A stretch of 64,000 nt of DNA from a virus, in IMG/VR virus record IMGVR_UViG_3300043464_002317, positions 17,323 through 81,322 of that record, one strand, 5' to 3'. The first letter of the stretch is position 1; every line of letters begins with the position of its first letter. The translations under genes and the position numbers were made by a program. This document shows, one piece after another, positions 17,358 to 55,531 of this stretch. The notes beneath the pieces are model-generated. The model made no database searches, was not told the origin of the DNA, and saw only the letters and a list, made by a program, of their open reading frames with translations.

Positions 17358-17359
17358 TT

Positions 17360-18061: not shown

Positions 18062-18070
18062 AAAATTAAA

Positions 18071-18652
18071 ATGAGTCATCACTTAAATTCTTGCGGAGAA
18101 CCAATAAAACCATGTTGTAATACACATGACGATTGTTTAGGCTGCACCCATTATCATACTACAGACTGCATTACAGTAAATGATGATTATGAATGCCTTG
18201 AAGTTGAAAAAGGAGACTTATTGTCTACCGTTTTAGAAAAATTGTGCGAACAATCAACTCAAAATTGTACTTTAACTTGGCAAGATATTACCGTTAAATC
18301 TGCATATACTGTACCTGCGGTATTCAGTACACTTGCATTACAAATACCACAATTTGCAAAAAATGAATGTACAAATCAAGTTTATTTAAGAGGCACATTT
18401 ATGATTCCACAAGGTAATCCAGACCCTAATTCTGCCTCAGCCTTTACATTACCATCAGGTTTTAGACCAGTAACCAACCGTTTATTTCCGAACAGCTTAT
18501 TCCCTTTAGATGGTTTTGACACTGCATCACAAAAATATACGTTATTATTAATTAAACCTAATGGGCAAGTTATACCATCAGAAATAGCTGGAAATTCAGC
18601 CAACAGAGATTTATATTATTGTTTAGACGGAATCGTATTTGAAACAGATTAA
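18071..18652 (+). CDS. Cys-rich short fibre, paralogue of the preceding gene
   Basis: W.DITV...QVYLRG...FTLPSGFRP...PNGQV...LDG motifs shared with the 17360 gene. Confidence 0.6.
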   Translation: MSHHLNSCGEPIKPCCNTHDDCLGCTHYHTTDCITVNDDYECLEVEKGDLLSTVLEKLCEQSTQNCTLTWQDITVKSAYTVPAVFSTLALQIPQFAKNECTNQVYLRGTFMIPQGNPDPNSASAFTLPSGFRPVTNRLFPNSLFPLDGFDTASQKYTLLLIKPNGQVIPSEIAGNSANRDLYYCLDGIVFETD

Positions 18653-37339: not shown

Positions 37340-40300
37340 TGAATACACCAGAATATTACGCTAAATTTGCAGCACCAAGCTCATTTGAAGGTAGTTATGT
37401 AGCCCCTCAGAAATCTTTTGATTTTGATGCTGTATATAACTATGCAGGTAAAAATTTAGGTTATATAACAAGGTATCCTGAATTAAGTCCTTATGGGGAT
37501 TCAGAACAAATTCAAGCTGAAAAACAATCTGGATGGGATAAAGCATTAAATTCTGGTTTACAATTAGGAGCTTTAGCAACTAATACGTTTGCAAATCATT
37601 TTTACAGTTATGGAAGACAAGCATCAGCCTTAACAAATCAAGATTGGAGTAAGCTATGGCAAGATGATTTTGGGCAAGAAAGTGCTCAAATGATACAAGG
37701 TGTCAGTGATTTATACCCTATATACGAAACAGAAGAACAACAAAGATTAAGAGATGAAGAAGGAGGTTTATCAACTTCATTAAAACAATTTGTTCCGTTT
37801 ACTGGTCGTGCTGGAAATGCTTGGGCAAATTTAGCAGGGCAATTAGGTTTTATGGCTGGTACAGCAGGAGCAGTAGCCTTAGAATCCGCAGGATTAGCTG
37901 CACTAACAGCTGCAACAGAAGGAGTAGCAGCTCCCCTAGCTTTGACTAAAACTGTTTCAAATGCAAAGCTATTAAAATCAATGTACACCTTATATAAAAA
38001 TGCACGTACAGGACTAACAGGTGTAAAAAATGCAGCACAATCAGCAGGATTAATAGGTAATATTGTAAAAAGCCCAGTATTTACAACATATCGAATGTTA
38101 ACAGCAGCTCAAGGTGAAGCGGCTATTGAGGCTAATATAAATGCATTAGAATACAAAAATAAACAGCTTGAAAAATATGGAGTAAATGTTACTCCAGAAC
38201 AAATGCAAGAAATAGATACAAGAGCAACAGAATTAGGTAATACAGTATTTAATTGGAATGCACCTGTTTTAATGCTTGGAAATGCAATGACTATTGGAAG
38301 TCTTTTCAGAGTTGGAAATTTAGGTAAATCAGCTACAAGTCAGCTAATCAAAGAAGAAGCAACAGGAGTAATAAAAAAGAAATTTGGAGAATTAACAACT
38401 AAAGAAGCTTTAAACCCTTTTATTAAAAAAACATGGGAATTTTCTAAAAAAGGAGGTAAATTTGTAGTTAATGAAAATTTATATGAAGGTGTAGAAGAAG
38501 TTCTCCAAGGTATTGGAGGTAGAGCTGCTCAACATATGTACGAGACATATGATTCTGAAGGGGGTAAAGGTTTGGATGCATTTTTAACTGCGTTAGGAGA
38601 AGAAACTTCAAATACATTTAGTACAAGAGAAGGTTGGGATGAATTTGTATCTGGAGCTCTTACTGGTTATGGCATAAAAGGTATTACTTCTGTATACAAT
38701 AGAGCAACAGGAGCAACAGCTAAAGAACAAGCAATACGAGACTTTACTCAAAAAGGGGTTGAACAAGATATTCAATCAGTAAATAATTATATGAAGTCTG
38801 TTTTAACTAATACAGACCCAAACACTAATTATGTAAAAAATCAAGTTGCTTCTATAGAACAACAAGAAACAGCAATAGCTGATGGTAATGTTAAAGTTGC
38901 AAAAGATGCGCAAGGTCAAACTAAAATAGGTTTATTTTCAAAGTTGCAAAAATACGGTACATCTGTATCAGACGATATTTTTGATTTGTGGGGAGAAACC
39001 ATGAAAGAAATGCAAAAAACCAACGAAACAGATTTCCGTCAAATGATGGGAGACAGAAACGTTGAAGAAGTTGTATCTAAATTAAAACAAGAAAATAAAC
39101 AATTTAACGATGTTTATAATACCATAGATAAAAACGCAAAAAATCCGTATAACCAAAAAACAGACTCTAAAAATTATCAGCTTTATGAGCAAGCAAAACT
39201 TTTTGCTGCTGGAATGGAATACAATGCAAGAGACAGTAAAGAACGAGGTCAGGCAATTGTAAAAGATTTAACAACTAATTTTGGTATAGATGAAACTTTA
39301 ATTGCTTCCATGTTTGATGGAACAACTTTAAGGGATAATCTTACAACAGCTAAAAAACTTTTTAAATTACAAGAAGAAGCATTAAAAAATGCTGCAACCC
39401 CAGAAGAAAGGGAAGCTTTAGAACAAGAGCTTCTTAAATCAAAAGAAAAAGTAGAACTTCTTCAAGCAATAGAGACTGGAGCTTTTGATGAAAAAGGTAA
39501 TCCTGTTTACGGAGAGAAAAATCCAGAAGAAACAGCAGCTATGTTTATTAAAGCTTATTACAGAGATAAGTCAGCTTTAGTACCAGACGAACTTAAAAAG
39601 AATATAGAAGATTTAATAACTTTAGAAACAGAATCTGAAGGCTATTTAGCAGCTTATAACTTTCTTTCAAACAAAGATTATCTTGAAAAATTTGCCGAAT
39701 CTTATTTAAATGAAGCAAATAAAAAAATAGCTCAATCTGAAAAAAACATAAGCAGAAATCAAAAAGCGGCTTCAAAACCTATTATAACCCCAGAGGAAAA
39801 ATACGATGATAATCAAGTTGATGAAGCTTTAACAGGAACTACAGCAAAGGCAAGCATAACAGATTTTTTAGAAGAGGTTCGTTCAAAAAAACAATCAGAC
39901 GGAACATACCTACATAATGGTAAAAAATATAACACTGCAAAAGAATTAGCAGAAGACTTAAAAAAAGAAACTGAAGGTTTTGAAGATTTACTTGACCAAA
40001 CAAATGATAAAGGTGAATCAATAGATTCTATCTTAGAAAAAGCTCTTAATAATTTAGAAGAAGAGTTAACAGAACCAGGAGATGCGGTAAGAAAAACAGA
40101 AGGGCAACCAAAGCAAGTTATCCAACCAAAAACTAAAACACAATCAGAAGCCGAAATTAAAAAAGGTTTTTGGCAAAAATCTTCTCCATATAACACAAAA
40201 GTACATAGCTTTGATTTAGTTATCTCGTTTCTATTTCCTAAAGATTTAAGTTATCTTTTTGATAGTCTTGTTAAGGCAAATCAAAACGATGTACTTAACG

Positions 40301-43300
40301 TCATACAAAATGGATTATCAAGAATTGGTCGTGGGGCGAGAGTAACTATGATAAATCTTGCAGATGAGACAGTTATTGATGTTTCAAGGATAAACAATCC
40401 AGAACAAATTGAAGTTATATCAGATGGAATTCGTTTTTATATAATTACTCCAGCAGATGTAGCTCCAAACGTAGTTATTAAAGAGCAACTAGGCTTAGAA
40501 GTTGGAGATGCAGAAAGAAAGTTTACAACAATACGAAATGATAAGGGAACTGTAATCTCATCACCATTCAGAGCTGCAAATCAAATTACTCCAGCTTCAG
40601 ACGATGTTATTCACTCATTGAAAATAGATGATGAAGTAGAAATTTTTGTTGCAGATAATCAATATAATAGGGATTTACAAGATAAGAGAAATAACAACGA
40701 AATAACAGAACAAGAATATACAGATAAGTTGGTTCTTTCTGTTGTAAAGAATGGTGAAATTATCGGAGTTCTAAGAGCAGCAGACTTTCTATTTGAACAA
40801 GAAGAAAATCAAGCTCAAATGGACGAATTCCGTTCGCAATTCGCAAATCGAGAATTAGGCGATAGAATTGGTTCTACACCAGTACAAGGTTTTGAAGTTG
40901 CTCGTGGCTATAATTATGTAAATGGTCAGATTCAATACACAACATTAAACGAATACAATCCTGTAAACTATAGCACATCTTTTTATTTTGTAAAAGAAGA
41001 TGGAACTATTATTGATGAACAAGGTAATGAAGTTCAAGAAGACTTTTTTGACCGAGGGAGTTTTGCGCAAGGCGGTGTCTATATGCGTGTTGATGGAGTA
41101 AATAATAAAAAGAATCATACAGTTCAAGTTCTACGTAGTGATAACGATAACTCTGTATTTACTGAAGAAGAATTTACAAGCGGTAAATTTAAAGAAATAG
41201 GGCAAACAAGCCTATCGGATGAACCTATTATTTCTAAGCGTATATCTATTTCTTTGAGACAAGTAAAAGATACTGATACTACACACAGTGAAGGTATAAA
41301 AGAACAAGTTCAGAATATTACTGATAATAAAGTTTTATCTCAAGAAGAGGAAAAAGAAGTAGCTAAATTGGAAAAAGATTTAGCTAAAAAACAAGAATCT
41401 TTAGATAAAGTAAATAGGCAAATTGACGAGAATAAAGAAAGAGTAAAAAAATACAACGAAAGCGGAGTATTGGGTCAAGCGGAGTATAAAAAACTTACTA
41501 AAAAAGATATTGATTTAAATATATCTAAACAATCTCTTGAAAAAGATATTCAAGATATAAATCAAAAAATAAAATTAATTAAAGGTGACAGAGCAGTAAT
41601 TGAAGATGTTAACGGAGCTCAAACTGTAGTAGATTCTGTTGTAGAATCAGAAAATGAAACTGTTTTAATATCAGTTAACGGAGAAACTGTAGAAGTTAAA
41701 CTTTCTGAAATCAGTTCAGTAGAACCTGTAGAAACAAGTAGTGATGGTGTAGGGGGGGAAGATGTAGATGTAAAAGATGATATAGAAAGAAGAAGACAAG
41801 AAAAATTAAGTCAAATTAAACCTGATGGTAAAACTTCTAAAGATAGAAGAAAAGTTTTAATGTTAAACGAAGATTCTGATAAAACATTTGATGAATCTTT
41901 ACAAGAAGCAGGGTATGTAAATGTACAAGGGGTTTGGGTTGAACCAGATATAAACATAGAATTACTAAAAAGTTTACCTCAAATTTTTTGGGAATACTTA
42001 TTTGATAAACAAGTTATTTTAGTAAATGACACTACTAAAGAAAGAGGTGGGCAAAGTGCAGACAGAACATTTAAAAACGAATCAAGACCTGTTATTTCTT
42101 TAGGTAAAAATTCTTCTACGAAAGGAACTTTACAGTTAATTGCACATGAACTTGGTCATTTTGAGTTTAGAAAATTATCTGAACAAGAAAAAAACTCTTT
42201 AAAAAACTATGGTACAGCATCTACTTGGTATGTAAAAGGTTTAGAAGAAGGAACTTACAAATCAGCAGCAGAAAATTATGAAGAAAATTTTGTTGAAAAT
42301 TATGCAGCAGATTTATTACAAAAAATGGGAATTTCTAAAGGTGTAGATAGAGCTGAAATAAAAATTAATTCCATTTATAAAACTATTTTTGATAAAATCA
42401 ATGCCAAATATGATGCAGAACTAGATGCTTTACAACAACCTAACGAAGAAACAATAGTTTCAGAACAACAACTACCAGCAGAACAAGTACAAACAGCACC
42501 TACAGAACAAGATGCTAACAAATGGATAGCTCAAAATGCTAAAACAGGTGATAAATTAATATTAACAGATGGAACTGAAATAGAAATAGTTTCTAATGAA
42601 GATGGTGTAATAACTATTAAAAGAACTAAAAATGATACTACTGTACAACAAGTATTTCGAGTTTTACCTGATGGTACTGTTGTTTCAGATGAACCATTAT
42701 CTTTAGAAAAAGCTGAAGAACCATTAGCTCTACCAAGAAAACCACAAGATACTACAGTTATAGACTCTTTCAGAGAAAGATTAAGAAAACATGGGATAGA
42801 ATCAGAAGTTGTTTTATCAGCTTTATCTCAAGTATATCAAAAATCTATAAATGAAGGCAATCCTATAACAAATCTTGACGATTTGATTGAAGCTTCTGGA
42901 TTGACAGCAACTCAAAAAGAACAGTTACAAATGGTTCTTACTCCAGTATATAGAATGGGTGTATGGCAATTCTTAACTAATTCTGATACTATTTTTGATA
43001 TTGCTCAACAAGAAAGATGGGCAGCATTTCAAACAACCATCAAAAGTATTCTTGAAGAATCTAGCACTGTAGAAAGTTCCCTACCTACTGACAACTTAAA
43101 AAATGAATTTAAATTAAACGTAATAGATGCCCTTTCAGATGTATTTAATAATTTCAAAATCGGTATCAAAAACATTGAAATAGCTAATACATTTACTTTA
43201 CCTGATTGGAATAAAATAACATCAGCTTTAAGTGCAGCAGTTAACACTATAAATCCAAGAGAAGCTATTGTTAAGTTACAACAAGACTTAGCTGAGTTAG

Positions 43301-43962
43301 GATTACAAGTATACGCAAAAGGACTAATTCAAGTAGCTAGAGTTTCAAGAGCTTCATTAGGTAGAAATCCGCAAGTAGCTACAGACTATAACAATGTATA
43401 CACAGATTTATCCATGGCAAATGTAGATGGTAAAATATTTGTTCGTAACGAAAAAGACGGTCTTTTTGTAGAAGTTAAAGCAACTAAGAAAAAATTTTCA
43501 GAAAATGTTATAAATATTCAAAAAGATTTATTATCTTTGTTGGGAGTAAAATTCCCATTAGAATATTTAAACGCATATCAACGTATAAACGGAGATTTTG
43601 CAGCATTAAAAGAAAGAGCCATATATGAACAACAAAGAGCCGATGCTTTACCTAATTTCTCTTTCTCAGAGATTAAACCAGAAAGTATATCATTTGTCAC
43701 TGAGGATTTATTCGTATCTAAATATTCTGCTAGTACATTAAGTCTTGATGGTAAAAAATATTATAATCTACTGACACTTGAAAATGGAGAAACTGTTTAT
43801 GCACCTATAAATAAACGTTTAAACTCAGCAGAAGTAAGAAACTTACTAAAGAGAAACGGGCTTAATGTAGGTAAAATTGTAAGAAAAGACCAATCATTCG
43901 CAGAAAGATTATCTAAAATAGCAAAAATTAAAAAACAATTAGAAAAAATAACTTGTAACTAA
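37339..43962 (+). CDS. Giant cargo/ejection protein 1 with hydrophobic N-terminal region and inserted zincin domain
   Basis: 2207 aa; Ala/Gly-rich hydrophobic helices, EG.EE..Q motif, HELGH at 42145; single Cys at the penultimate residue. Confidence 0.65.
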   Translation: MNTPEYYAKFAAPSSFEGSYVAPQKSFDFDAVYNYAGKNLGYITRYPELSPYGDSEQIQAEKQSGWDKALNSGLQLGALATNTFANHFYSYGRQASALTNQDWSKLWQDDFGQESAQMIQGVSDLYPIYETEEQQRLRDEEGGLSTSLKQFVPFTGRAGNAWANLAGQLGFMAGTAGAVALESAGLAALTAATEGVAAPLALTKTVSNAKLLKSMYTLYKNARTGLTGVKNAAQSAGLIGNIVKSPVFTTYRMLTAAQGEAAIEANINALEYKNKQLEKYGVNVTPEQMQEIDTRATELGNTVFNWNAPVLMLGNAMTIGSLFRVGNLGKSATSQLIKEEATGVIKKKFGELTTKEALNPFIKKTWEFSKKGGKFVVNENLYEGVEEVLQGIGGRAAQHMYETYDSEGGKGLDAFLTALGEETSNTFSTREGWDEFVSGALTGYGIKGITSVYNRATGATAKEQAIRDFTQKGVEQDIQSVNNYMKSVLTNTDPNTNYVKNQVASIEQQETAIADGNVKVAKDAQGQTKIGLFSKLQKYGTSVSDDIFDLWGETMKEMQKTNETDFRQMMGDRNVEEVVSKLKQENKQFNDVYNTIDKNAKNPYNQKTDSKNYQLYEQAKLFAAGMEYNARDSKERGQAIVKDLTTNFGIDETLIASMFDGTTLRDNLTTAKKLFKLQEEALKNAATPEEREALEQELLKSKEKVELLQAIETGAFDEKGNPVYGEKNPEETAAMFIKAYYRDKSALVPDELKKNIEDLITLETESEGYLAAYNFLSNKDYLEKFAESYLNEANKKIAQSEKNISRNQKAASKPIITPEEKYDDNQVDEALTGTTAKASITDFLEEVRSKKQSDGTYLHNGKKYNTAKELAEDLKKETEGFEDLLDQTNDKGESIDSILEKALNNLEEELTEPGDAVRKTEGQPKQVIQPKTKTQSEAEIKKGFWQKSSPYNTKVHSFDLVISFLFPKDLSYLFDSLVKANQNDVLNVIQNGLSRIGRGARVTMINLADETVIDVSRINNPEQIEVISDGIRFYIITPADVAPNVVIKEQLGLEVGDAERKFTTIRNDKGTVISSPFRAANQITPASDDVIHSLKIDDEVEIFVADNQYNRDLQDKRNNNEITEQEYTDKLVLSVVKNGEIIGVLRAADFLFEQEENQAQMDEFRSQFANRELGDRIGSTPVQGFEVARGYNYVNGQIQYTTLNEYNPVNYSTSFYFVKEDGTIIDEQGNEVQEDFFDRGSFAQGGVYMRVDGVNNKKNHTVQVLRSDNDNSVFTEEEFTSGKFKEIGQTSLSDEPIISKRISISLRQVKDTDTTHSEGIKEQVQNITDNKVLSQEEEKEVAKLEKDLAKKQESLDKVNRQIDENKERVKKYNESGVLGQAEYKKLTKKDIDLNISKQSLEKDIQDINQKIKLIKGDRAVIEDVNGAQTVVDSVVESENETVLISVNGETVEVKLSEISSVEPVETSSDGVGGEDVDVKDDIERRRQEKLSQIKPDGKTSKDRRKVLMLNEDSDKTFDESLQEAGYVNVQGVWVEPDINIELLKSLPQIFWEYLFDKQVILVNDTTKERGGQSADRTFKNESRPVISLGKNSSTKGTLQLIAHELGHFEFRKLSEQEKNSLKNYGTASTWYVKGLEEGTYKSAAENYEENFVENYAADLLQKMGISKGVDRAEIKINSIYKTIFDKINAKYDAELDALQQPNEETIVSEQQLPAEQVQTAPTEQDANKWIAQNAKTGDKLILTDGTEIEIVSNEDGVITIKRTKNDTTVQQVFRVLPDGTVVSDEPLSLEKAEEPLALPRKPQDTTVIDSFRERLRKHGIESEVVLSALSQVYQKSINEGNPITNLDDLIEASGLTATQKEQLQMVLTPVYRMGVWQFLTNSDTIFDIAQQERWAAFQTTIKSILEESSTVESSLPTDNLKNEFKLNVIDALSDVFNNFKIGIKNIEIANTFTLPDWNKITSALSAAVNTINPREAIVKLQQDLAELGLQVYAKGLIQVARVSRASLGRNPQVATDYNNVYTDLSMANVDGKIFVRNEKDGLFVEVKATKKKFSENVINIQKDLLSLLGVKFPLEYLNAYQRINGDFAALKERAIYEQQRADALPNFSFSEIKPESISFVTEDLFVSKYSASTLSLDGKKYYNLLTLENGETVYAPINKRLNSAEVRNLLKRNGLNVGKIVRKDQSFAERLSKIAKIKKQLEKITCN

Positions 43963-46900
43963 TGGCTTGTATTTTAAAAGATAAAAACGGAAATGTAACT
44001 TCAGTAACAGCTGACAATGGAAAACCATCTCAACTATTTGATGCAATTAATAAAATACCAGTTTTTGAAAATAGAAACAAAGCAGCAGAATTTTATGCTT
44101 ATATTGTCTCTGAAAAGTATAATCAACAAAAAGATTTACTATTAGATAATAATGGAGAGCCAGTTTTATTTTTTAAAGATTTAACAACAACTACAGACCC
44201 TGCATCTGGTCAATTTAAATATGAAACAGACTTTTTAATTTCGTTTAATAAAGACAAAGATTCAAAAGGTATACAAATAGGTTTTTTAAAAGGAACTGAA
44301 ACTCAAACAGATTCGGCTAAAAACTTTGTACAAATAGAAAAATTTGAAAGAAATTTAAATCCAAGAACATACTCTGGTTTTATTGAAAACATGTTGAGCA
44401 GAGGTGTACAGCTGACGACTAAAACTGAGAGTGAGCCATCTCAAGCAGGTAGTGTTGGGAAATTGAATGTTGTTGACAAAACTAAGGATATATTAGACGA
44501 AGTTACTGATGAAAAAATAGGTGAAAAAAAGTATCAAGACTTTTCTATTGATTTTGAAGACGGGGCAAGAGCTTTTGGGACAATTGAAAATGGAGTTGCA
44601 AATATTTCAGGCATCAATGCACCTAAAAAAGAAGACAGCGTTATTGAGCCAAAAAGAGGAACAAAAACATACGAAAGAGTAATTGAAAAGTTAAAAGAAA
44701 ATGGAATAAAAACCATTAAGGTATCTTTACAATCACAAGACAGTCAAACAGCACTATCTAAGTTAGTTGAAAAAGGTATATTGTCAAACCCAAGAGATAT
44801 GCAAGGGGTGAGCGACAGTCAATTTGCTACCACTTTTGATATACAATCCCTCAAAGAAACACTCCAAGCAGGTAGTGTTGGTGTAGGGGGAGATGTGAAG
44901 CAACAAGAATTGGATGCACAGAGGGTTAACAAAGAAGCAGGTGTAGATATTTATGTAGCAAGACAAGATGTGGATGCGAATGGCAGTACATACACATTAT
45001 CGCAAATAAAGGAGAATGGGAATACCAATACATTTTTAATTGAAGATGCCAATGGTAATGAAGTTGGGAAAGCACAATTAAGTGTAGATGGTAATTATTT
45101 AGAGAATATAAGGATTGACGAAAATCACAGAAGAAAAGGACTTGCAAGTAAGGTATACGATTTTATAGAATTACGAAAAGGTATTGAATTAAAGCCTTCA
45201 CCAAATAAGCAATCAAAAGAAGCTAAAGCGTTGTGGGATAATCGTAATTTAAAAAAATCAGAACAACCCCTCAAAGAACAACAGACTCAAACTACTCCAG
45301 AAAAAACTTTATTTGACAGAGCTGTTGATTCATTAAAATCATTTGTAGCTTTTAAGGATACTAACGTAACAACTGACGACACTAATTTGAAAAAAGCTTT
45401 GAACGCTGTAGATTTAAAAACTCCAAAAGGAGAAATCTACGGTGCATCTTATGTCAATGCAGACGGGCAACAAGAAATTTATATCAATCCTGAAAAACTT
45501 TCAATCGAGTCATTAATCCATGAAAATTTTCATCCGTTTCAAGTAGCACTTAGAGAAGCAGCTAAAAGCGGAGACCCACAAGCAAAAGCATTTATAGACA
45601 GAATGCTTGAACTTGCAAAACAAGAAGTAAAAGATAATTTTGCACCTGCCGAAGCCGAGCAGATTTTGGCGCAGTTTGAAAATAGGTTGACAAAAACATC
45701 TATGCCAGAAACAACCCCTGTAAACTTCTTTGCAATAGGTCAAAGAGGTGCTATGGCTCTTGATAAAATAGAAGGAGGATTTAATAGATTAAAAAGACTA
45801 AAAGAAGCAAAAGAATTAGAAAGTTTAGGAAAATCTAACGCATACATAAAATTTTTGACAGGTTGGGAAAGACAAGATGGTAAATGGAAAACAGAAATTG
45901 ATGATTTTACTGATTTAAAAACAACCCCAGAACAAATTCTTAATCTCAGAGAAAATATAGGAGCAACAACAACCGTAAAAGAATTTTTTAATAATAATGC
46001 AGCAATTGTTTTACAAGCATTTCCTAAAATAGGAGATATAACTGTAAGATACGATGACAATGCTACAGGAGCTTATGCACATTATGACCCTATAAATAAA
46101 GAAATAGTCTTTTATAAAGATTATTTAGATAGACCAGTAAATGATATTAAAAGTTCATTTCTTCATGAAATACAACACGCTATCCAACAAATAGAAGGTT
46201 TTGATTTTGGAGCTGACGAAAATATGCAAAAGATTTTGTCAGATATGCATAAAATAACTACAAATGATGCATATTTTAGGTCAGCTAGTGAAGTTGAAGC
46301 AAGAAACATACAAAAACGTATGTTGATGTCAGCTAAAGATAGATTACTTACTGAATTAGATGCTACAGCAGATGTTTTACCAGAAGATAGGCTTTTTATA
46401 GCAGATGCTTTAGATGCAACAAATAAAGCTATAGTCAAGTTATCTGATGTTAACTTCGTAAGAAATATGGAAGTTAAACCAATAGCCAATGAAATAGATG
46501 TTGTAAACGGATTTTATTCTCCTATTGAAAAAATATTAACTGAAACAAAAATTGAAAAACAGAGTGGAGCGAAGTGGCTTTCAGTAGTAGGTAAAGGTGA
46601 CGAGGCTACATGGACAGGAGTTAAAAATTGGTTAGAAGAAAATTCACAAAAACAAATTTCAAAATCTGAAATTCAGCAATGGACGAAGGATAATCGTATT
46701 GAGGTTGTGGAGGTGGTTAAGGGTTCTAAGTATGTCCCAAATTATTCAATAGAAAATGAGCCGCCATCTAAATTTGGTGCTACAAGAAATGATTTACTGG
46801 GGGCATTAATGGCTTCCGAAAATATTGACAATCCAAGGTTTGAACAATATCTTGAAAATAGATATGGGAATGGAAAAGAATTACTTACTTGGTTAAAGGA

Positions 46901-49900
46901 AAACACCACAGAAAATGGTAGTTATTTAAAAGAGGAAGATACAAAGTTTGGAAGCTACCAATTAGCAGGGGACAAGGAAAATTATAAAGAGCTATTAGTT
47001 ACGATGCCGAGTAATAATGAAACTCAAAAGTCGCTTGATATAGCCTTTAAAGAAAAAGGGTATGTAATGACAAGTAATGGCAATATTTACCCTAAAACTA
47101 TTGCTGGATATGCAGATGTAAATAATTATCCTGATGGGGTATCATTAAATAGTTTGCCAACGGATGTACAAAAAATAGCAAATAAATTAAAAGGAACGAT
47201 AGGGGGTAAAGATTTCAAATCCTCTCACTTTTCAGAACCAAACATCCTTGTTCATTTAAGAATGAATACCCGTACAGATGCAGATGGGAATAAAGTTTTG
47301 TTTATAGAGGAATTTCAGCGAGATGTTGAAAAAGAAACTGATTTAGGCGAAAAAGAAGCAGGATTACCATTTAGCAAAACTACTGACTATGTAAAATTGG
47401 CGTGGAAAGTAGCTTTAAAAGAAGCCGTTAAACAAGGTGCTGATAAGATTGCTTGGACAACAGGAGAGCAGCAGAATGATAGGTATGATTTGAGTAAGCA
47501 AGTAGATAAAATTGAAATAATAAAAAGAGAAGGTGTAGATAGTTACCGAGCAAAGACGTATAAAGATGGAAAAATATTAGAAGACCAAGACTATATCCCC
47601 TTTAGTCAATTAGAAGGAATGTTTGGCAAAGAAATAGCTACAAAAGTTCAAAATGGAGAAAGTGTTTTTGAGGGCGAAGGATTAAAAGTAGGCGGAAAAG
47701 GCATGATTGGATTTTATGGGTCTCCAACAGAAAACAAATTAGGCATAGTAGGTAATGTAGCTAAGAGTTTGTTTAAGCAAGAGCCGAAAACGGTTGAGAT
47801 TGAAACAGGGGTTGATACTAATGAAAAAGAAATTATTTGGGAAGACCTTGGGGATGGGGAACAAAGGGTTTCAATAGGGGGTGACGATAAATATTTTAGC
47901 ACGGAAGAAGCAGCGAAAAAATATGTAGCTAAATTAAAGTCTAATAAAGTCACCCAACACTCCATAGACATAACTCTCGAATTAAAACAACAAGTACAAG
48001 CTGGGCTTCCGATGTTCAAAGCTGGCGAAGACTTAGGAAAAACTTTTCTATCAAATCTAATGTCGAATCCAGCATACGAAAACTACACTGGAGACCAACT
48101 GCTTGATGAGTTAATCACAACAATGGTCGGTAAGACTGGGGAGCAGTTGTTGGGCGAACCTACAACGCAAAACAAAACATTCTTTGATGCAGTAAAAGAA
48201 GCGGTAGTAGATGCAATAAAATGGCTGGCAGAAAAATTTGGTGTTTCTCTGAAAGATAAAACAGCAGACCAAATATTAAACATGAAACTCGGTGAACTTG
48301 TTTCAGCTGGATTAGCTAGTGCAAGAAAAGGAGAATTTCTACAGAATAAAATAGAAAAATTAAAAGCTATATTAAACGAAGAAAATATTCTTTCTCCGCA
48401 GTTAGTAGAATCAAATCTATTTTTAGAAACTAATCAAGAGTTATTAGAAATAGCAGACAAATATAAAAATTCTAAAGGTTTAAGTTTGCAAACACCAGAA
48501 CTTGTTTTAAATGTACCACAAGAAGATGCTAAAAGAATTGCAGATGCTTACGAAGCAGCTAAACACACTCCAGATGACCCTAACGCACAAAAATCTTTTA
48601 ATCAATTACTAAAAGAAATAAAAGAACAAGCTGATATATTATTAAAAGCAGGTTATGTATTTCAAATAGCAAAGGAAGGGGAAGGTTATAACTCTAACAG
48701 TAGAGAAATGGTTAAAGATGTTAAGCAAAATAAAAGAATTTTTGTTGACCCATCTTCAAAATCTTTTGGAACTACAAGAGTTTTTGACGAAAACAATATA
48801 GGCTTACAAGATAGCGGATATAAAGATGTTAACGGAATCCCAATGACAAATGTTGAAGTTATCAGAGGAGTTCATGACTTATTTGGACATGCTAAATATG
48901 GTAACGGTTTTGGAGCTGTAGGAGAAGAAAATGCTTGGAGAATACATATGGCTATGTTTTCACCTTTAGCTCAAAAAGCTCTTACTATAACTACACGAGG
49001 TCAAAATTCTTGGGTTAACTTCGGAAACCATATGAGAAATGCAGATGGAAGTATCAAAAAAATTACAGACCCAGGGTATTTATCTCCAAAAAATAGACCT
49101 TTTGCCGAGCAAAAAATTACCTTACTACCTGACTGGGCACTTACGAAAGCTTATGGAGATGTTGTCACTGTAGGTAGTAAAAAGGTAACACCTGCAAATA
49201 AACATGTAATCGCAGGTACTGATGTTTATGAAATAACAGATGCAAAAGCTTTTTATTCAGCTATTACAGCAGCTAAAAAAAGCCGAGGTTTAGATGGAAT
49301 TCAAGTAGATAATAAATCAGTAGCGGAATTTGAACAAATAGTAAAAGAAGGTGGAAGATTATTTATCACTCAAGACGGTTTAGCAGGTGTTGTGTTAAAA
49401 GGGGACGGATACGTAGGTATGGGATTTGCGCATAATAATTTGCCAAAAGGAAGTAATATTTTAAAACCTTTACTGCAATTAACAATTAAGTTAGGTGCAA
49501 CATACGCTGACGCTTACGATACATTTCTTCCTAAATACTACGCTAAATTTGGTTTCAAACCTTTTAATAGATTAAAATTTAATCCTGAATTTGCTGAAAA
49601 AGGGTGGGAAAAAACTATTTTGAATACTCAACCAGATGTTGTTACAATGTATTGGGATGGAGGAGATAGAACAAAAGTAGAGCAAAATTACGATATATTT
49701 GAACCTTACGATAAAACACAAGGAACATATACAGAAGATTATGATGCTGCATTAGCAGCTACAAAAGAAAAATCTTTTGAAAAAACAAATCAAGTATCTA
49801 TTACACCTCCAAAAATCCCAAATAAACAGATTGTTTCTTTACAATTTAAACCTGCTGTTCAAGTTACTGAATTTGACCCTACAACCAATTCTATAGCTGC

Positions 49901-50264
49901 ATTTAGAGGGGATAATTATGTAGGTAGGATAAATACACAAAAAGTAGGCGATGATTATATAATTACTCATTCAAGCGTAGTTCAAAAAGAACAAGGCAAA
50001 CAAATAGGTACAACTATGTATTTAGGTGTTATTGAATTTGCAAATAATCAGAGCAGAATAGTTTATTCTGACCAAAATCCTCAACCACAAGCTAAAGCTA
50101 TATGGGAAAAATTAGTAGATGCTAATGTGGCTGAAATTAATGGAAATGGATATATGGTATTACCTGATACTTTAGCAACAAATAGAGACCAACCTTTAGA
50201 TATTGATGCTATCGTAGAGAAAATGATTCAGAATAACGATATTATACGTAATTGCAAACTTTAA
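43962..50264 (+). CDS. Giant polyvalent cargo protein 2 (GNAT-like, zincin/MPTase-like, LPD23-like domains)
   Basis: 2100 aa; HENFH (45519), HEIQH (46164), TGWER.DGKWKTEI, RRKGLASKVY, QGKQIGTTMY, HDLFGH; Cys only at residues 3 and 2098. Confidence 0.7.
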   Translation: MACILKDKNGNVTSVTADNGKPSQLFDAINKIPVFENRNKAAEFYAYIVSEKYNQQKDLLLDNNGEPVLFFKDLTTTTDPASGQFKYETDFLISFNKDKDSKGIQIGFLKGTETQTDSAKNFVQIEKFERNLNPRTYSGFIENMLSRGVQLTTKTESEPSQAGSVGKLNVVDKTKDILDEVTDEKIGEKKYQDFSIDFEDGARAFGTIENGVANISGINAPKKEDSVIEPKRGTKTYERVIEKLKENGIKTIKVSLQSQDSQTALSKLVEKGILSNPRDMQGVSDSQFATTFDIQSLKETLQAGSVGVGGDVKQQELDAQRVNKEAGVDIYVARQDVDANGSTYTLSQIKENGNTNTFLIEDANGNEVGKAQLSVDGNYLENIRIDENHRRKGLASKVYDFIELRKGIELKPSPNKQSKEAKALWDNRNLKKSEQPLKEQQTQTTPEKTLFDRAVDSLKSFVAFKDTNVTTDDTNLKKALNAVDLKTPKGEIYGASYVNADGQQEIYINPEKLSIESLIHENFHPFQVALREAAKSGDPQAKAFIDRMLELAKQEVKDNFAPAEAEQILAQFENRLTKTSMPETTPVNFFAIGQRGAMALDKIEGGFNRLKRLKEAKELESLGKSNAYIKFLTGWERQDGKWKTEIDDFTDLKTTPEQILNLRENIGATTTVKEFFNNNAAIVLQAFPKIGDITVRYDDNATGAYAHYDPINKEIVFYKDYLDRPVNDIKSSFLHEIQHAIQQIEGFDFGADENMQKILSDMHKITTNDAYFRSASEVEARNIQKRMLMSAKDRLLTELDATADVLPEDRLFIADALDATNKAIVKLSDVNFVRNMEVKPIANEIDVVNGFYSPIEKILTETKIEKQSGAKWLSVVGKGDEATWTGVKNWLEENSQKQISKSEIQQWTKDNRIEVVEVVKGSKYVPNYSIENEPPSKFGATRNDLLGALMASENIDNPRFEQYLENRYGNGKELLTWLKENTTENGSYLKEEDTKFGSYQLAGDKENYKELLVTMPSNNETQKSLDIAFKEKGYVMTSNGNIYPKTIAGYADVNNYPDGVSLNSLPTDVQKIANKLKGTIGGKDFKSSHFSEPNILVHLRMNTRTDADGNKVLFIEEFQRDVEKETDLGEKEAGLPFSKTTDYVKLAWKVALKEAVKQGADKIAWTTGEQQNDRYDLSKQVDKIEIIKREGVDSYRAKTYKDGKILEDQDYIPFSQLEGMFGKEIATKVQNGESVFEGEGLKVGGKGMIGFYGSPTENKLGIVGNVAKSLFKQEPKTVEIETGVDTNEKEIIWEDLGDGEQRVSIGGDDKYFSTEEAAKKYVAKLKSNKVTQHSIDITLELKQQVQAGLPMFKAGEDLGKTFLSNLMSNPAYENYTGDQLLDELITTMVGKTGEQLLGEPTTQNKTFFDAVKEAVVDAIKWLAEKFGVSLKDKTADQILNMKLGELVSAGLASARKGEFLQNKIEKLKAILNEENILSPQLVESNLFLETNQELLEIADKYKNSKGLSLQTPELVLNVPQEDAKRIADAYEAAKHTPDDPNAQKSFNQLLKEIKEQADILLKAGYVFQIAKEGEGYNSNSREMVKDVKQNKRIFVDPSSKSFGTTRVFDENNIGLQDSGYKDVNGIPMTNVEVIRGVHDLFGHAKYGNGFGAVGEENAWRIHMAMFSPLAQKALTITTRGQNSWVNFGNHMRNADGSIKKITDPGYLSPKNRPFAEQKITLLPDWALTKAYGDVVTVGSKKVTPANKHVIAGTDVYEITDAKAFYSAITAAKKSRGLDGIQVDNKSVAEFEQIVKEGGRLFITQDGLAGVVLKGDGYVGMGFAHNNLPKGSNILKPLLQLTIKLGATYADAYDTFLPKYYAKFGFKPFNRLKFNPEFAEKGWEKTILNTQPDVVTMYWDGGDRTKVEQNYDIFEPYDKTQGTYTEDYDAALAATKEKSFEKTNQVSITPPKIPNKQIVSLQFKPAVQVTEFDPTTNSIAAFRGDNYVGRINTQKVGDDYIITHSSVVQKEQGKQIGTTMYLGVIEFANNQSRIVYSDQNPQPQAKAIWEKLVDANVAEINGNGYMVLPDTLATNRDQPLDIDAIVEKMIQNNDIIRNCKL

Positions 50265-50306
50265 TTGTTATAAAGTTTGAAGTTTGAACAAAAAATGTTA
50301 TTTTTA
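50255..50306 (+). promoter_or_regulatory. Putative late promoter
   Basis: CAAAC-N7-GTTAT (50255-50271) and TATTTTTA (50299-50306); aligns with the 31644 promoter. Confidence 0.6.
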
Positions 50307-50323
50307 CTCCAAAATATTTAATA

Positions 50324-53300
50324 ATGGCATGTGTATATACCTATAATGGTGTAGATTTTGAAACTAAAGAACAACTCAAAGCAGCTGTAGAAAAAGATAT
50401 GCAACTCGGTTTCAAAGATGGAGTTATTAATCTACAAGGCGAGGACGTTGAATGGCAAAAGACAATTATGAAAGCCGAAGCAAAAAAAGCTTTTGGAACA
50501 TCTGAATTTATGTCTTTTGAAAAACAAGAAGATGGTACATACAATGTTTTTATTGACAAGAAAAGTTTAGATGAGCTGGCAGGAGATACTAAAACATTTA
50601 CTACAGAAAATGGCGAAAAAAAGGATTTTAGCATAAAACAACTTATTAACGACTTAGTTAGAAACAATAAACTTCCAGATATACGTAATGCTGTAGATAA
50701 TATGATTAATATTTTATCTACAGAGTACATTAAAAAAATGGAACGTCAAGCTCAAACTTCAAACAGGCAAAACTTAACAGAAGACGAGCTTGCTGGAAAA
50801 TTACTATCGTTTGCCGAAAAACTCGGTATTAGTGTTACTACTCTTACAAATTATTTGGATAGTTATTCTAACCGAGTAAATACAGAAACAGCCGATATTA
50901 AGTCTTTGGCAGATTTACTTAACAAAGTTATAGCAGTATCAAATACTGGAGATATATCACAATTATCTGAAGAAATAGCTCACTTTGCTATTGAATATCA
51001 TAATGATAAGATGATTATCTCCAAAATGATAGATAAGATAGACCAAACAACAGCTTATAGAAAATACGCTGAGAATTATAGAGCAATATACTCTGACAAA
51101 TTGTCTGGTGAAGCTTTAGAAAAAAAAGTTAGAAAAGAAGTCCTCGGTAAAATTTTGGCTGAAAAAATACAAGATAACTTTACAGATGAAAATGCTATAA
51201 ACTCTACAGAAATAGGTATATTCAATCAACTGCAACAACTATGGAATGATTTTATTTCTCTTTTTCAAATAAATGATGAAAACCAAAGATTTTTCCAAGA
51301 ATTTGGAGAAGTTTTAGATACATTAGCTGCTGATGTTGTTTTAAATAATGATTCTCGTTTCTCTCCTGTAGAGAGTCGAGAAGTTTATTATATGGCAGAT
51401 GCCAAACAAAGGAATATTCATGACGGTCTTAGAGATTTAATAGAGAGATTAGAAGATAAATATAAAAGTCTTTCTACTCTTCCAAGTTTTGATAGAACAT
51501 TGAGACTCAACGAGTTATCAGACATACAAGAAAAATTACTTCAAGCTAAAACTTATCAAGGAATAAACTCTATTCTCGCCTTAATGAGCGAAGATATTGG
51601 ACGTGTTATTTCTACTTTGCAAAATGCAAAATCAACAGACCCTGCACAGTTTTTTAGAAATGTAGGTAATCTAAATTTGTCTAACCTAATTACGTTTACG
51701 AGTGACTTAGATTATAATCTACAAGTTTTGCGTAATTTCTTGGTAGATAATGATAGTTTAGCTCCAGAACTAACAGCAGAATTGCTTAACAAATTAAATG
51801 GGGTATCATCATCTTTTCAAAATGCAAAACCAGACTTAGATATTATTAAATCTCAGGCTCAACGAAGTGCAATAAGAGACATAGCTACAAGTTATGGTGT
51901 AAAAAATGAAGAAATTTTGCAAGCTTTAGATGATATGTCTAATCGAGTATTTAAAGATGTTAATTGGTTTGTTAAAAACGTCTTCTCGTCAAGAACCGTA
52001 GATAATCCAGTTGTAAAAGCTATTTTTGCAATGGTTGCAAGAGCTCAGAGTATTATAAATACTAAAAATGCTGATTTTGCCAGAGAAATAGTTGATTTCT
52101 TTAATGATTCTAATTTGACGGATGCTGATATTCAAAATCTATACGATAAATATCACATGATAAATCCTTTTAAGTCGGATGTTTACGAAGCATATGAAGC
52201 AGCTAAACAAGCTGTCAGAGATAAATACACACCAGAATCACTTAACAGTATAGAAAATCAAAAAGCTCTTGAAAAAGAGTTAGCGGATTTAGATAAAAAA
52301 TGGATAGTAAGAGAATTTACTGATGAAATATATAAACAGACAGAAAATCTTCATCCCGAAGTTAAGAAGGCAATTTTTCAACGTTCTTCTGCGAGAAACG
52401 AAGTTTATAGACAATATAAAAAAGCAGATGGTTCTATATCTTTAAAAAATATTTCAGTAGCTGACAGACAAAGATTAGAAGATATTGATAGAAGATTTAA
52501 ATCCATGGCTTCTATATGGGATATAAATGGTGAGAAAAAAGAAGGAGTCTCATTATTGATAGCCGAAGGTTTACAAGAATACACTGCATCTTTTAATCCT
52601 GAAAAATTAAAAGAAAAATATGAAGCTGCAATAAAACAAAATCCTCAGAGAGAAGCCGAGCTCAGAAAAGAATTAGAAGACAAACTTAAAGAATTAGAAG
52701 ATAGAAAAGTAAATTCTGGCGATGCAGCATTTCAAAAAGAATTAGAACTTATCAAAAGAAAATATGGCGAAAATTCAAAAGAGTTTCGTGATTGGTTAAG
52801 TGTAAATGGTTTTGAAACTTATGATGATTCTGTGCTTAATGCATTAGAATCAGAAGGAGCAATCGTAAACGAAGAACAAACAGCTAAAAAGATAAATGAT
52901 TCTCAAAAACGAGCACTAATAAAAAATTTAGGTCTTAAAAATAATGCAACATTTTCAGAGATATACACAGCGTTACTTGAAAAAAGACGAGAAATTATAA
53001 AACCATATAAAAAATCTGGATTATTTAATCAGATTGATGGTAATGTAGTTTCAGCTATACCAGAACTTACACAAACATTAGATGAGATAGCAGCAAAGTT
53101 ATATTTATTTACATTAGAAGATAGTAAACAGACATCAAATATTCAATCTTTAGCTAACGATGCTTTCAAAAGAAAATACGATGAGTTAAATAAGAGCCCA
53201 AATAAGAAAGCTTTATACCAATTTTTAAATAATGTTGGTGTTATGAAGGGTAAAGAGGTAGATGGTTATCCAGTTCCATTAGCTTATCAGTATAGAACTT

Positions 53301-55531
53301 TTCGTTTTGTAGATGAAAAGAGAGCTCCGATTAATAAAGTTTATAAACCTAATTTTACTTGGAACGCTAAAAACGAGATTACACGTACAAAAAACCCTCT
53401 GTTCAATGAAGACTTACGTGGAAAAACAATACAGTTTAACCCAAATTTAACGGAACATGTAAATCAAGAGTTTTTTGATTTATTTGGTATAGATAAAGAT
53501 ACGGATTTTTACGGCACTAAGCAAGGGGCAACTAAAAATCAAGAGCTTTGGGAATTTAGAAAGTTATTGTTAAAACAAAAAGACAAAAACGACACAGAAC
53601 TTAGACGCTTTAACCAATATTTTCAGCTACCACAAGTACTTAAACAGGATGTATTCAGAGAAACAACTGTTAAAGATATAAAAGGCTCTTTAAAAGCAGC
53701 AGCTATACGCCAATTCACCACTCAAAATGAAGGTGAATTCCGAGTGAGCCAAGGAACTGTGCAGAAATTATATGGTCAAAAAGCAAACGACCCACAAGAG
53801 CTCACTAGAGATATGGCTCTAATGTATACAAAGTATAATGAAATGACTGCTAATTATACAGAAAAGTCTAAAATACTTCCAGATGTACTTCTTTTGAAAG
53901 ATAGGTTAGATAATTCAATGTTATTTGAGGGAGGTAAAAAAGGAAAAGAGACTAATCTTTCTCAGATGCTTGAAGGATTTATTGACATGAATATTTATGG
54001 TCAAACATTGGATAATGGTGGTGAATTTGATATTTTTGGATTATCAGAAAAGTATCTTGGTTTCAGATTGTCTGGCTCTAAAATAGCTGATTCTCTTTAC
54101 AAATACATATCCTTTTCAAACTTAGGTGGAAATATATTTGTTCCTGTAGTTGGAGCACTTTCTTCATTTACCAAATCAAATATAGAAGCGTTTGCTGGTA
54201 ATGATATTACATACGAAAACTTTTTATGGGCTAATGGAAAAATATCAAGAAAAGATATTTGGACTTATGCAGGAGAAATAGGAAATTTAGCTCCAACTAA
54301 CGAAGTAAAAAAATTACTAACTTACGCTAAAGTAACTATTTCAAATAAAGAACTTCAGTCTGGTATTACTAGAGGCAGAATGTACAGAACTAACACAAAC
54401 TGGTTCTTTAAACATTACGAGGCTGTTGGTGTTGTTTCTGGAGCTGTTGCTACACTTTCTGTTTTTGATAACTATAGATTAGTTGACGGTAAATTTATTT
54501 CTTTCCAAGAGTTTGAAACAAACAATAAAACTAAACCTGAAAAACAAATAAAGGAAGAATGGGATACTTATAAAGATAAAACATACTATTCTTACCTTGT
54601 AGACGAAGGAGATAAAGCATTATATCTTGATAAAACAAGATTACAGAGTGATGGTTTTGATGTTAAAAATATTGCTACAACCGAAGCTAAAATGGAAAGA
54701 CAAGCAAATCTTTTCCATTCAAAAATAGAAGGTATGATAGACCCTTTAGATAAGGGTATTTATCTTAAAAATCCTATTTTTAAATTCTTAGGTATGCATA
54801 AAGGTTGGTTTACAAATGCTATTCAAGATAGGTATGTAGGTCAACATAAAGACTGGATTAGTGGGAGAACAATTGAAGGTAGTTATAATACTTATGGAAG
54901 ACTTATTAAAGAAACATTAACAAGAGACGATTTAAACGGAAGAGAAAGATTAAAATCTATATTAGAACTTCATCTATCATTAGTTACTTTAGGTATATAT
55001 TCAAAAGGTCTTGAAAATTTAGATGGCTTTGAAAAATCCAACATTAAACTATTAGCAGGAGATATGATGGCTGTAGCTGGATTATTTGCCTTATTTGTTT
55101 TAGCCAATGCAGCAGCAGACGATGATGAAGATGACTATTTGAAACAATATCTTGCCTATATCAGTTCAAGGGCTTTATCTGAACAATTATCTACTACTAT
55201 GCCATTTGCTTTGTCTGAGGTTTATACTATTGTAAACTCACCTGCTGCTGGAGTAGGAATGCTTGAAACAATTACTAAAATACCTCAACTCGTTATAAAT
55301 GGAGACAAAGTGGTATCTTCTGGAGCATATGAAGGTTTAACTCAAAGAACTAAAGAAGTAATGAAATGGACTGTTGTGAAAAACATATGGAATCCTATGA
55401 ACGATAATGCCAGAAATGCTAACTTATATTTTAGAGCTAAAGTTATTGGAACTCCAAACGATATATTGAAAGAACTTCTAAATTATGATGAAGAAGAAGA
55501 CCAAAAGAAGAAACGTAAAAAGAAACAGTAA
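50324..55531 (+). CDS. Giant cargo/ejection protein 3
   Basis: 1735 aa, helical; degenerate zincin (EEIAHF...KEVLGKIL); C-terminal hydrophobic helix followed by DDDEDD; only Cys at residue 3. Confidence 0.65.
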   Translation: MACVYTYNGVDFETKEQLKAAVEKDMQLGFKDGVINLQGEDVEWQKTIMKAEAKKAFGTSEFMSFEKQEDGTYNVFIDKKSLDELAGDTKTFTTENGEKKDFSIKQLINDLVRNNKLPDIRNAVDNMINILSTEYIKKMERQAQTSNRQNLTEDELAGKLLSFAEKLGISVTTLTNYLDSYSNRVNTETADIKSLADLLNKVIAVSNTGDISQLSEEIAHFAIEYHNDKMIISKMIDKIDQTTAYRKYAENYRAIYSDKLSGEALEKKVRKEVLGKILAEKIQDNFTDENAINSTEIGIFNQLQQLWNDFISLFQINDENQRFFQEFGEVLDTLAADVVLNNDSRFSPVESREVYYMADAKQRNIHDGLRDLIERLEDKYKSLSTLPSFDRTLRLNELSDIQEKLLQAKTYQGINSILALMSEDIGRVISTLQNAKSTDPAQFFRNVGNLNLSNLITFTSDLDYNLQVLRNFLVDNDSLAPELTAELLNKLNGVSSSFQNAKPDLDIIKSQAQRSAIRDIATSYGVKNEEILQALDDMSNRVFKDVNWFVKNVFSSRTVDNPVVKAIFAMVARAQSIINTKNADFAREIVDFFNDSNLTDADIQNLYDKYHMINPFKSDVYEAYEAAKQAVRDKYTPESLNSIENQKALEKELADLDKKWIVREFTDEIYKQTENLHPEVKKAIFQRSSARNEVYRQYKKADGSISLKNISVADRQRLEDIDRRFKSMASIWDINGEKKEGVSLLIAEGLQEYTASFNPEKLKEKYEAAIKQNPQREAELRKELEDKLKELEDRKVNSGDAAFQKELELIKRKYGENSKEFRDWLSVNGFETYDDSVLNALESEGAIVNEEQTAKKINDSQKRALIKNLGLKNNATFSEIYTALLEKRREIIKPYKKSGLFNQIDGNVVSAIPELTQTLDEIAAKLYLFTLEDSKQTSNIQSLANDAFKRKYDELNKSPNKKALYQFLNNVGVMKGKEVDGYPVPLAYQYRTFRFVDEKRAPINKVYKPNFTWNAKNEITRTKNPLFNEDLRGKTIQFNPNLTEHVNQEFFDLFGIDKDTDFYGTKQGATKNQELWEFRKLLLKQKDKNDTELRRFNQYFQLPQVLKQDVFRETTVKDIKGSLKAAAIRQFTTQNEGEFRVSQGTVQKLYGQKANDPQELTRDMALMYTKYNEMTANYTEKSKILPDVLLLKDRLDNSMLFEGGKKGKETNLSQMLEGFIDMNIYGQTLDNGGEFDIFGLSEKYLGFRLSGSKIADSLYKYISFSNLGGNIFVPVVGALSSFTKSNIEAFAGNDITYENFLWANGKISRKDIWTYAGEIGNLAPTNEVKKLLTYAKVTISNKELQSGITRGRMYRTNTNWFFKHYEAVGVVSGAVATLSVFDNYRLVDGKFISFQEFETNNKTKPEKQIKEEWDTYKDKTYYSYLVDEGDKALYLDKTRLQSDGFDVKNIATTEAKMERQANLFHSKIEGMIDPLDKGIYLKNPIFKFLGMHKGWFTNAIQDRYVGQHKDWISGRTIEGSYNTYGRLIKETLTRDDLNGRERLKSILELHLSLVTLGIYSKGLENLDGFEKSNIKLLAGDMMAVAGLFALFVLANAAADDDEDDYLKQYLAYISSRALSEQLSTTMPFALSEVYTIVNSPAAGVGMLETITKIPQLVINGDKVVSSGAYEGLTQRTKEVMKWTVVKNIWNPMNDNARNANLYFRAKVIGTPNDILKELLNYDEEEDQKKKRKKKQ

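Follow-up and report, generated by a model that had tools for sequence, protein, structure and literature searches.

The window analysed here, a 64,000-nucleotide (nt) stretch of viral DNA (bases 17323-81322 of the 81,322-base pair IMG/VR virus record IMGVR_UViG_3300043464_002317, CheckV completeness 54%), carries six consecutive virion-type open reading frames (ORFs), here designated A to F (27300-55531), the last three of which code for giant proteins with cysteines (Cys) placed at their facing ends. These ORFs, with protein lengths in amino acids (aa), and a module at the start of E are as follows:

27300-31646, + strand: A, 1448 aa, 0 Cys
31716-34910, + strand: B, 1064 aa, 0 Cys; matches PHROG 36695 'virion structural protein'
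34910-37339, + strand: C, 809 aa, 0 Cys
37339..43962, + strand: D, first in the chain, 2207 aa; sole Cys at residue 2206 (codon 43954-43956), second from the C-terminus
43962..50264, + strand: E, middle of the chain, 2100 aa; only Cys3 (codon 43968-43970) and Cys2098 (codon 50253-50255), the latter third from the C-terminus
43962..44195, + strand: N-terminal module of E carrying Cys3, residues 1-78 (alignment A2 and profile)
50324..55531, + strand: F, last in the chain, 1735 aa; sole Cys at residue 3 (codon 50330-50332); matches PHROG 37651 'virion structural protein'

Examination of the six proteins reveals 4 Cys in 9,363 aa, all in D, E and F (together 6,042 aa), and these pair up across the facing ends of neighbouring proteins, D Cys2206 with E Cys3 and E Cys2098 with F Cys3. 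D lacks an N-terminal Cys and F a C-terminal one. An earlier note on this DNA, made from its letters, had reported these counts and coordinates together with the linear-chain topology that they imply, and all proved exact on recount. A, B and C are Cys-free virion-type proteins encoded 5' of the chain; they have no terminal Cys and are hence not coupled under a rule in which facing terminal Cys join consecutive proteins.

The scarcity of Cys is not a property of the genome as a whole, as the earlier note had also maintained: the 26 other ORFs of at least 150 aa in the window contain 183 Cys in 10,205 aa (1.79%), and the adjoining muzzle-type protein has 58. At this background rate about 168 Cys would be expected in A to F against the 4 seen (Poisson P for 4 or fewer ~4e-66). 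In the DNA of the six ORFs, TGT and TGC triplets occur 4 times in the coding frame versus 109 and 457 times in the other two frames; the depletion therefore acts on the protein level. Given four Cys, the chance of finding every one of them no more than 3 residues from one or another of the 12 termini is ~2e-10, a figure computed post hoc. The four codons (TGT, TGT, TGC and TGT) each stand in a different nucleotide context, and the genes that they mark are differently spaced, with a 1-nt overlap between D and E and 59 nt between E and F. The Cys pattern is thus real and far beyond chance.

A search with the first 500 residues of F against 5.8 billion proteins recovered 15 proteins, the window's own among them, which are 28-99% identical over this N-terminal region. 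Every one of the 15 has a Cys at position 3 or 4, which is the sole Cys of the protein in 14 of them, and Cys3 is among the 24 invariant columns of their alignment (A1). The alignment of F homologues was then the means of finding 34 viral and 22 metagenome loci (denoted L001 and so on where they have to be told apart), in which, together with the window and Cellulophaga phage phi4:1, all + strand ORFs were taken and the distinct junctions between consecutive ORFs of at least 300 aa with less than 0.6% Cys were tallied; this Cys filter favours Cys-poor proteins, and its only rejects were 11 ORFs, all downstream of the F-like gene. The 60 distinct junctions comprise 50 with a Cys on both sides, 10 with a Cys on neither and 0 with a Cys on one side only. 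Each of the 10 empty junctions precedes the first chained protein, as A/B, B/C and C/D do in the window, and the outer ends of the chain, namely the N-terminus of its first and the C-terminus of its last protein, are always without Cys.

The placement of the paired residues is confined to a narrow range. The C-terminal Cys stands 1, 2, 3 or 4 residues from the end in 13, 20, 14 and 3 cases, and the N-terminal Cys at position 3, 4 or 5 from the nearest Met in 29, 13 and 8 cases, never at residue 2, so that 0-3 residues follow the former and 2-4 precede the latter. The 110 distinct proteins involved (196,775 aa), which cover the chains and the adjoining Cys-free proteins and are not an unbiased sample, hold 119 Cys, of which 6 are interior. 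A cause at the nucleotide level, such as translational coupling or a conserved junction motif, is ruled out by the differing codon contexts and by the spacing of the genes: at 12 of the 50 paired junctions over 100 nt (and as many as 786 nt) separate the two genes, with small ORFs intervening in some of them, and in the gut phage csAssE-Sib the gap reaches ~8 kilobases (kb). Small Cys-containing ORFs (119-259 aa) are found between the middle and last genes in L025 (8852-9238), L027 (9113-9565), L039 (7281-7769), L054 (8595-9374) and phi4:1 (gp36; L004 18923-19282).

Across the loci the middle protein varies in length from 352 to 2100 aa and both of its terminal Cys are kept. The closely related loci L044 (2355-4103), L048 (8395-9981) and L053 (8923-9981) encode middle proteins of 582, 528 and 352 aa, of which the first 12 and the last 8 residues are identical; these length differences amid identical ends indicate that large internal insertions or deletions are tolerated and the Cys-bearing ends retained.

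The same arrangement is found in two named relatives of the window phage. In phi4:1, the sole Cys of gp38 (1957 aa) is its last residue, Cys4 and Cys516 occur in gp37 (517 aa), and gp35 (1914 aa) has only Cys3, while gp41, gp40 and gp39, the positional equivalents of A, B and C, have 0 Cys. Thus, phi4:1 and phi17:2 (Lightbulbvirus, 145 kb), both isolated on Cellulophaga baltica, share the gene order and Cys topology of D-E-F in gp38-gp37-gp35 despite great sequence distance; they differ in the size of the middle protein (517 aa in gp37 versus 2100 aa in E) and in a 119-aa ORF that lies between the middle and last genes of phi4:1. In csAssE-Sib, the sole Cys of a 2208-aa protein is its last residue and the 752-aa middle protein has Cys5 and Cys751 besides two interior Cys; between its middle and last chain genes lie unrelated genes over ~8 kb, and the terminal Cys are nonetheless kept. 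An apparent exception in this phage, a 281-aa ORF with Cys5, overlaps a 1885-aa ORF and its homology to gp35 continues in the other frame, so that the two look like one frameshifted F-like gene; in the record (OR575929, L005, 18728-25130) the corresponding proteins WOZ57322 (281 aa) and WOZ57323 (1885 aa) overlap by ~100 nt. The interior Cys of csAssE-Sib, 3 in the F-like and 2 in the middle protein, are more numerous than those of its aquatic relatives.

Proteins of 2127-2182 aa encoded at L007, L008, L047 and L052 are colinear fusions of an E-like and an F-like protein: their residues 1 to ~340 match the whole middle protein of L053 (352 aa), and from about residue 348 they match an F-like protein starting at its residue 4. 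Where the joint is aligned, a distance of just 5 columns separates the paired Cys of the split forms, and both of these positions are occupied by other residues in the fused forms. Judging from this alignment, the peptide bond and the Cys pair replace each other, because both Cys are gone at the fused joint. Both the pairwise co-occurrence of terminal Cys in relatives and their disappearance on gene fusion had been anticipated by the earlier note, and both are borne out, by the 50 paired, 10 empty and 0 unpaired junctions and by these colinear fusions, respectively. A further case concerns L030, in which a middle ORF open at its 5' end has Cys as its second residue; here the rule predicts an upstream partner. 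The upstream DNA of L030 was found to encode an adjoining protein of 1794 aa whose one Cys is residue 1793 and, before that, a protein of 1045 aa without Cys. No D+E fusion emerged from a profile search with the N-terminal module of E, which gave no full internal copy of it and just two internal copies that lack the Cys-bearing start.

Two loci that might be taken for additional fusions, L001 and L002, were discounted, as they share only a domain of ~460 aa with E and are not orthologous chains. The giant ORF of L001 (4423 aa) has 1 Cys, at residue 1679, and that of L002 (2991 aa) has 0, which amounts to depletion without terminal Cys. The 460-aa domain of these IMG/VR viruses (L001 5951-19222, L002 6551-15526) is 61-63% identical to E residues 1490-1949. 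By sequence comparison it appears to be a mobile cargo domain that is exchanged between otherwise unrelated Cys-free giant proteins.

The N-terminal module of E recurs at the start of many middle and last proteins in the related chains. In the alignment of 18 such N-termini (A2) the only invariant columns are Cys3 and Ser23, and a profile made from its first 100 columns matches residues 1-78 of E (E-value 5e-26) and yields 33 domain matches in 32 proteins, 30 of them N-terminal, including phi4:1 gp35 and both csAssE-Sib proteins. The two internal copies lack the first 16 profile positions, including the Cys (L054 ORF 3971-8608, residues 1206-1272; L023 ORF 8762-13675, residues 51-117), and may be leftovers of older fusions or duplications. 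On the other side of the D/E junction, the C-terminal 458 aa of D have near-identical homologues only (4/4 matches, 99-100% identity); the window D/E junction therefore has no independent alignment support beyond the N-terminal module of E. An AlphaFold2 model of F residues 1-600 (mean predicted local distance difference test, pLDDT, 67.5) places Cys3 in a low-confidence tip just before a β-hairpin. The earlier note had supposed that the facing ends are coupled and had proposed to co-fold them; such a co-folding of D 2008-2207 with the first 200 residues of E (alignment A2) scored 0.12 against a mark of 0.32, with controls absent, and hence speaks neither for nor against binding.

As for domains within the chain, D has an HELGH motif at residue 1603 and a weak Pfam match to Peptidase_M78 (18.2 bits, under the 22-bit cut-off), and E has an HEIQH motif at residue 735. 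Pfam matches of E to GNAT acetyltransferases are above cut-off (Acetyltransf_1, 32.5 bits versus 20.7; Acetyltransf_10, 24.8 bits versus 23.6), and those to LPD23 (26.1 bits versus 27) and to the metallopeptidase-type DUF6782 (17.9 bits versus 27) are below it. The GNAT, LPD23 and DUF6782 match regions of E fall in residues 354-403, 610-648, 683-757 and 1972-2051, a domain make-up that may be of the polyvalent-protein type. The motif DxDGD is characteristic of the giant two-barrel RNA polymerases. No D.DGD motif is present in A to F, and no polymerase family in Pfam or PHROGs matches them.

The window has a GC content of 29-36%; its + strand carries a long virion module that ends at 55531, after which follows a replication module with helicases and a DNA polymerase on the - strand. 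A capsid-type ORF (367-2031) matches PHROG 35737, is 30.4% identical by tblastn to structural proteins of phi4:1 and phi17:2 over 92% of its length, and has 29% identity to what is annotated as the major capsid protein in csAssE-Sib; residues 152-310 of F are 34.4% identical to phi4:1 gp35. Close relatives among GenBank phages were not found by megablast, nor by tblastn for the N-terminus of E. Directly 5' of the Cys-free block lies the following gene:

20794..27300, + strand: muzzle-type protein, 2168 aa, 58 Cys; Pfam PF25731 crAss_MUZ

The PF25731 match is strong (E-value 1.5e-21; 76.7 bits versus a 27-bit cut-off), and the muzzle protein is the only one to match a crassvirus family. On account of this match and of the identity of ORF 367-2031, the window phage is, at the level of sequence similarity, a distant relative of the Cellulophaga phage phi4:1 group (Lightbulbvirus) with a crassvirus-type muzzle protein; capsid-type proteins, cargo proteins and gene order are common to it and the Lightbulbvirus-like phages. 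That the muzzle protein is of crassvirus type, yet the closest named relatives are Lightbulbvirus, outside Crassvirales, hints at a tail architecture common to both. Also in the virion module, three adjoining small + strand ORFs (16872-18652) encode proteins of 161, 239 and 193 aa with 7.5%, 5.4% and 5.7% Cys, the opposite extreme to the Cys-free block; they have alike Cys clusters near their N-termini and may be paralogous external virion proteins. An internal location, as cargo or ejection proteins of a large short-tailed phage, is probable for the giant D, E and F on indirect grounds: their phi4:1 homologues are annotated as detected by tandem mass spectrometry (MS/MS), B and F have PHROG labels of virion proteins, and the genes follow the muzzle gene; in the GenBank record of phi4:1, gp41, gp40, gp39, gp38, gp37 and gp35 are all labelled as MS/MS-detected virion proteins.

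A structural precedent for a bond between such proteins comes from the cyanopodophage A4 (Anabaena phage A-4L), in which cryo-electron microscopy revealed a disulfide between gp27 Cys1715 and gp26 Cys5 in the pre-ejectosome (PNAS 2025, PMC12002296). In the available text of that paper, the C-terminal helix of gp27 lies in a cleft of gp26, in a pentameric ring, and is 'further stabilized' by the disulfide. In the A-4L record the two genes are adjacent, and Cys1715 of gp27 (1717 aa) and Cys5 of gp26 (1114 aa) are each the sole Cys of their protein; A4 thus has sole Cys at the facing ends of neighbouring genes, as in D/E and E/F. It differs in having one link as against two and no double-ended middle protein, and is a 42-kb phage of another family, Saffermanviridae. 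The same Cys topology as in D-E-F recurs in the cargo block of Crassvirales, where in Cellulophaga phage phi14:2 g067 (1797 aa) ends in its sole Cys, g066 (2180 aa) bears Cys3 and Cys2179, and Cys3 alone occurs in g065 (1421 aa); the window, too, has a muzzle gene just 5' of its block. However, g066 of phi14:2 is the virion RNA polymerase, whereas A to F of the window are without the DxDGD motif and E has GNAT and metallopeptidase-type matches instead.

Depletion of Cys is itself familiar from Schitoviridae, where the giant ejected proteins (N4 gp50; DEV gp71, gp72 and gp73) are almost Cys-free, which the portion of the report at hand explains by avoidance of disulfides during passage through the periplasm (Nat Commun 2024, PMC11445570). 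This reason could also fit the interior of A to F. The few Cys that do occur are, in the same portion, put down to annotation errors and terminal pairs are not described, whereas relatives of A to F have conserved, paired terminal Cys. E also resembles the polyvalent proteins, multidomain giants whose genes stand among the virion genes and for which packaging and injection are predicted, with embedded metallopeptidases proposed to free the domains (Iyer et al. 2017, J Bacteriol, PMC5512222, as far as its accessible text goes); the likeness lies in the GNAT matches above cut-off, the LPD23 and DUF6782 matches below it, and HExxH motifs in D and E. Joining separate polypeptides by a link that can be reduced would differ, as a way of connecting and releasing modules, from what was proposed for the polyvalent proteins, and neither 'cysteine' nor 'disulfide' occurs in the text of PMC5512222 (0 each). 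Our literature search retrieved no paper stating a general terminal-Cys rule and none on the cysteines of phi4:1 or phi17:2, and the word 'cysteine' is not present in the accessible part of the crassvirus structural atlas.

In light of the above, we propose that D, E and F form a disulfide-linked cargo chain. Under this proposal, all Cys would have been purged from these proteins except for one thiol near each terminus turned towards the next protein. The upstream protein would dock by its C-terminal tail on the N-terminal module of the downstream one, and the paired thiols would oxidise to a disulfide, giving in the virion a covalent D-S-S-E-S-S-F chain of 6,042 residues, in which the link stands in for the peptide bond of relatives with fused genes. 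Such a chain would hold the pieces of the split cargo at 1:1, in order and with hardly any branching, which would allow packing and exit through the tail as a single thread; with no other Cys present, wrong cross-links would be avoided. In the host cytoplasm, reduction would then set the separate enzymes free, including those with the GNAT and metallopeptidase domains. As a whole, we consider this the best explanation, with a confidence that tips only modestly in its favour, as the bond, its timing, the threading and the reductive release are deduced from sequence and from analogy. The covalent Cys pair taken by itself appears quite likely on the same grounds, and the full picture of threading and release is put forward tentatively.

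The strict pairing of the Cys and their loss on fusion would fit equally well with disulfides that exist merely as a static staple of the packaged internal body, with no single thread and with a bond that is broken or irrelevant at ejection; the sole experimental case, gp27-gp26 of A4, is described in this manner in the available text. However, a staple could sit anywhere in an interface, whereas in all 50 pairs one Cys is 1-4 residues away from the C-terminal end and the other occupies position 3-5 of the N-terminus, which is the geometry of a nearly unbranched join and of a peptide bond that has been replaced. This near-terminal placement is only suggestive, in that gene splitting would yield the same, and we regard a static staple as a rather unlikely but serious alternative to the linked chain. 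The pairing data likewise show that the thiols cooperate, not how, and would accommodate other chemistry, such as a shared metal site (for instance a four-Cys zinc site assembled from two copies of a junction), which the earlier note had also entertained, or thioester-mediated peptide ligation. An N-terminal Cys near a C-terminal Cys does recall chemical ligation. Yet no intein, Hint or other splicing domain was found in A to F with Pfam (E-value at most 0.01), the N-terminal Cys is at position 3-5 and never at residue 2, and the C-terminal Cys, at 1-4 from the end, has neither a His nor an Asp conserved beside it; for a metal site, one Cys per terminus is too few for the usual kind. With the density in A4 having been modelled as a disulfide (PMC12002296, in the text available), these other chemistries seem improbable.

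A last possibility is that the terminal Cys do not interact with each other, either because the termini are the one site at which proteins that must avoid Cys tolerate it or because each Cys binds another partner. Suppression of Cys without a coupling role is indeed known in the homologues of Schitoviridae gp71, gp72 and gp73, as described in the part of PMC11445570 at hand. Tolerance would not, however, produce the invariance seen in 15/15 F homologues and of Cys3 in both A1 and A2, nor 0 unpaired among 60 junctions, nor the empty outer ends of the chains, and it leaves the joint loss of both Cys on fusion unexplained. We accordingly judge non-interacting Cys to be highly improbable.

Several points weigh against the disulfide-linked chain that we favour. 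For the window phage, and for any Lightbulbvirus-like phage, the bond is a prediction from sequence and analogy. The fused forms constitute one clade and probably go back to a single event, and the 50 paired junctions are likewise related sequences rather than independent events, diverse as they are, with 20-30% identity among F-like proteins and N-terminal sequences of at least three types. For the N-terminal position, a downstream Met start had to be assumed at 8 of the 50 paired junctions (11 loci); the module profile backs this start for L031 and L058. Virions assemble in a reducing cytoplasm, a difficulty for the oxidation that the link would require; the 81-kb record (54% complete) yielded neither an Erv1-type oxidase nor a thioredoxin, and the Erv1 search is uninformative, having matched no control genome either. 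The gut relative csAssE-Sib keeps its terminal Cys in an anoxic habitat. The authors of the A4 structure, in the text available, present the bond only as stabilising the packaged pre-ejectosome and state no general rule (PMC12002296), and D, E and F have no detected homology to A4 gp26 and gp27, which makes this precedent an analogy: phmmer searches of D, E and F and of the A1 profile against PDB chains gave no phage match, the N-module profile had no significant match to A-4L gp26 or gp27 and did not match the phi14:2 proteins either, and Foldseek with the model of F residues 1-600 gave no match at an E-value of at most 0.001, a search limited by the pLDDT of 67.5.

What is new here is the extension of a single published bond, that of A4, to predicted two-link chains of giant polyvalent-type proteins in a different lineage, in which no RNA polymerase was detected. 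The rule can be used from sequence alone, in that it identifies cargo or ejection proteins, their order, and which neighbouring genes form one functional unit, and it correctly predicted an unseen partner gene upstream of L030. Phages phi4:1 and phi17:2 on Cellulophaga baltica offer a culturable system in which it could be tested directly. It is conceivable, though at present doubtful, that terminal Cys pairs are a general device spanning several lineages of short-tailed phages (Lightbulbvirus-like, Crassvirales and the A4 group), in which a reducible thread would encode the order of the cargo, the cytoplasm would act as the release switch, and the purge of Cys would be the price of an unbranched thread. 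If true, a covalent head-to-tail link that can be undone by reduction would be a simple physical answer to the question of how podophages pass megadaltons of internal protein through a narrow tail while keeping its order and its ratios fixed.

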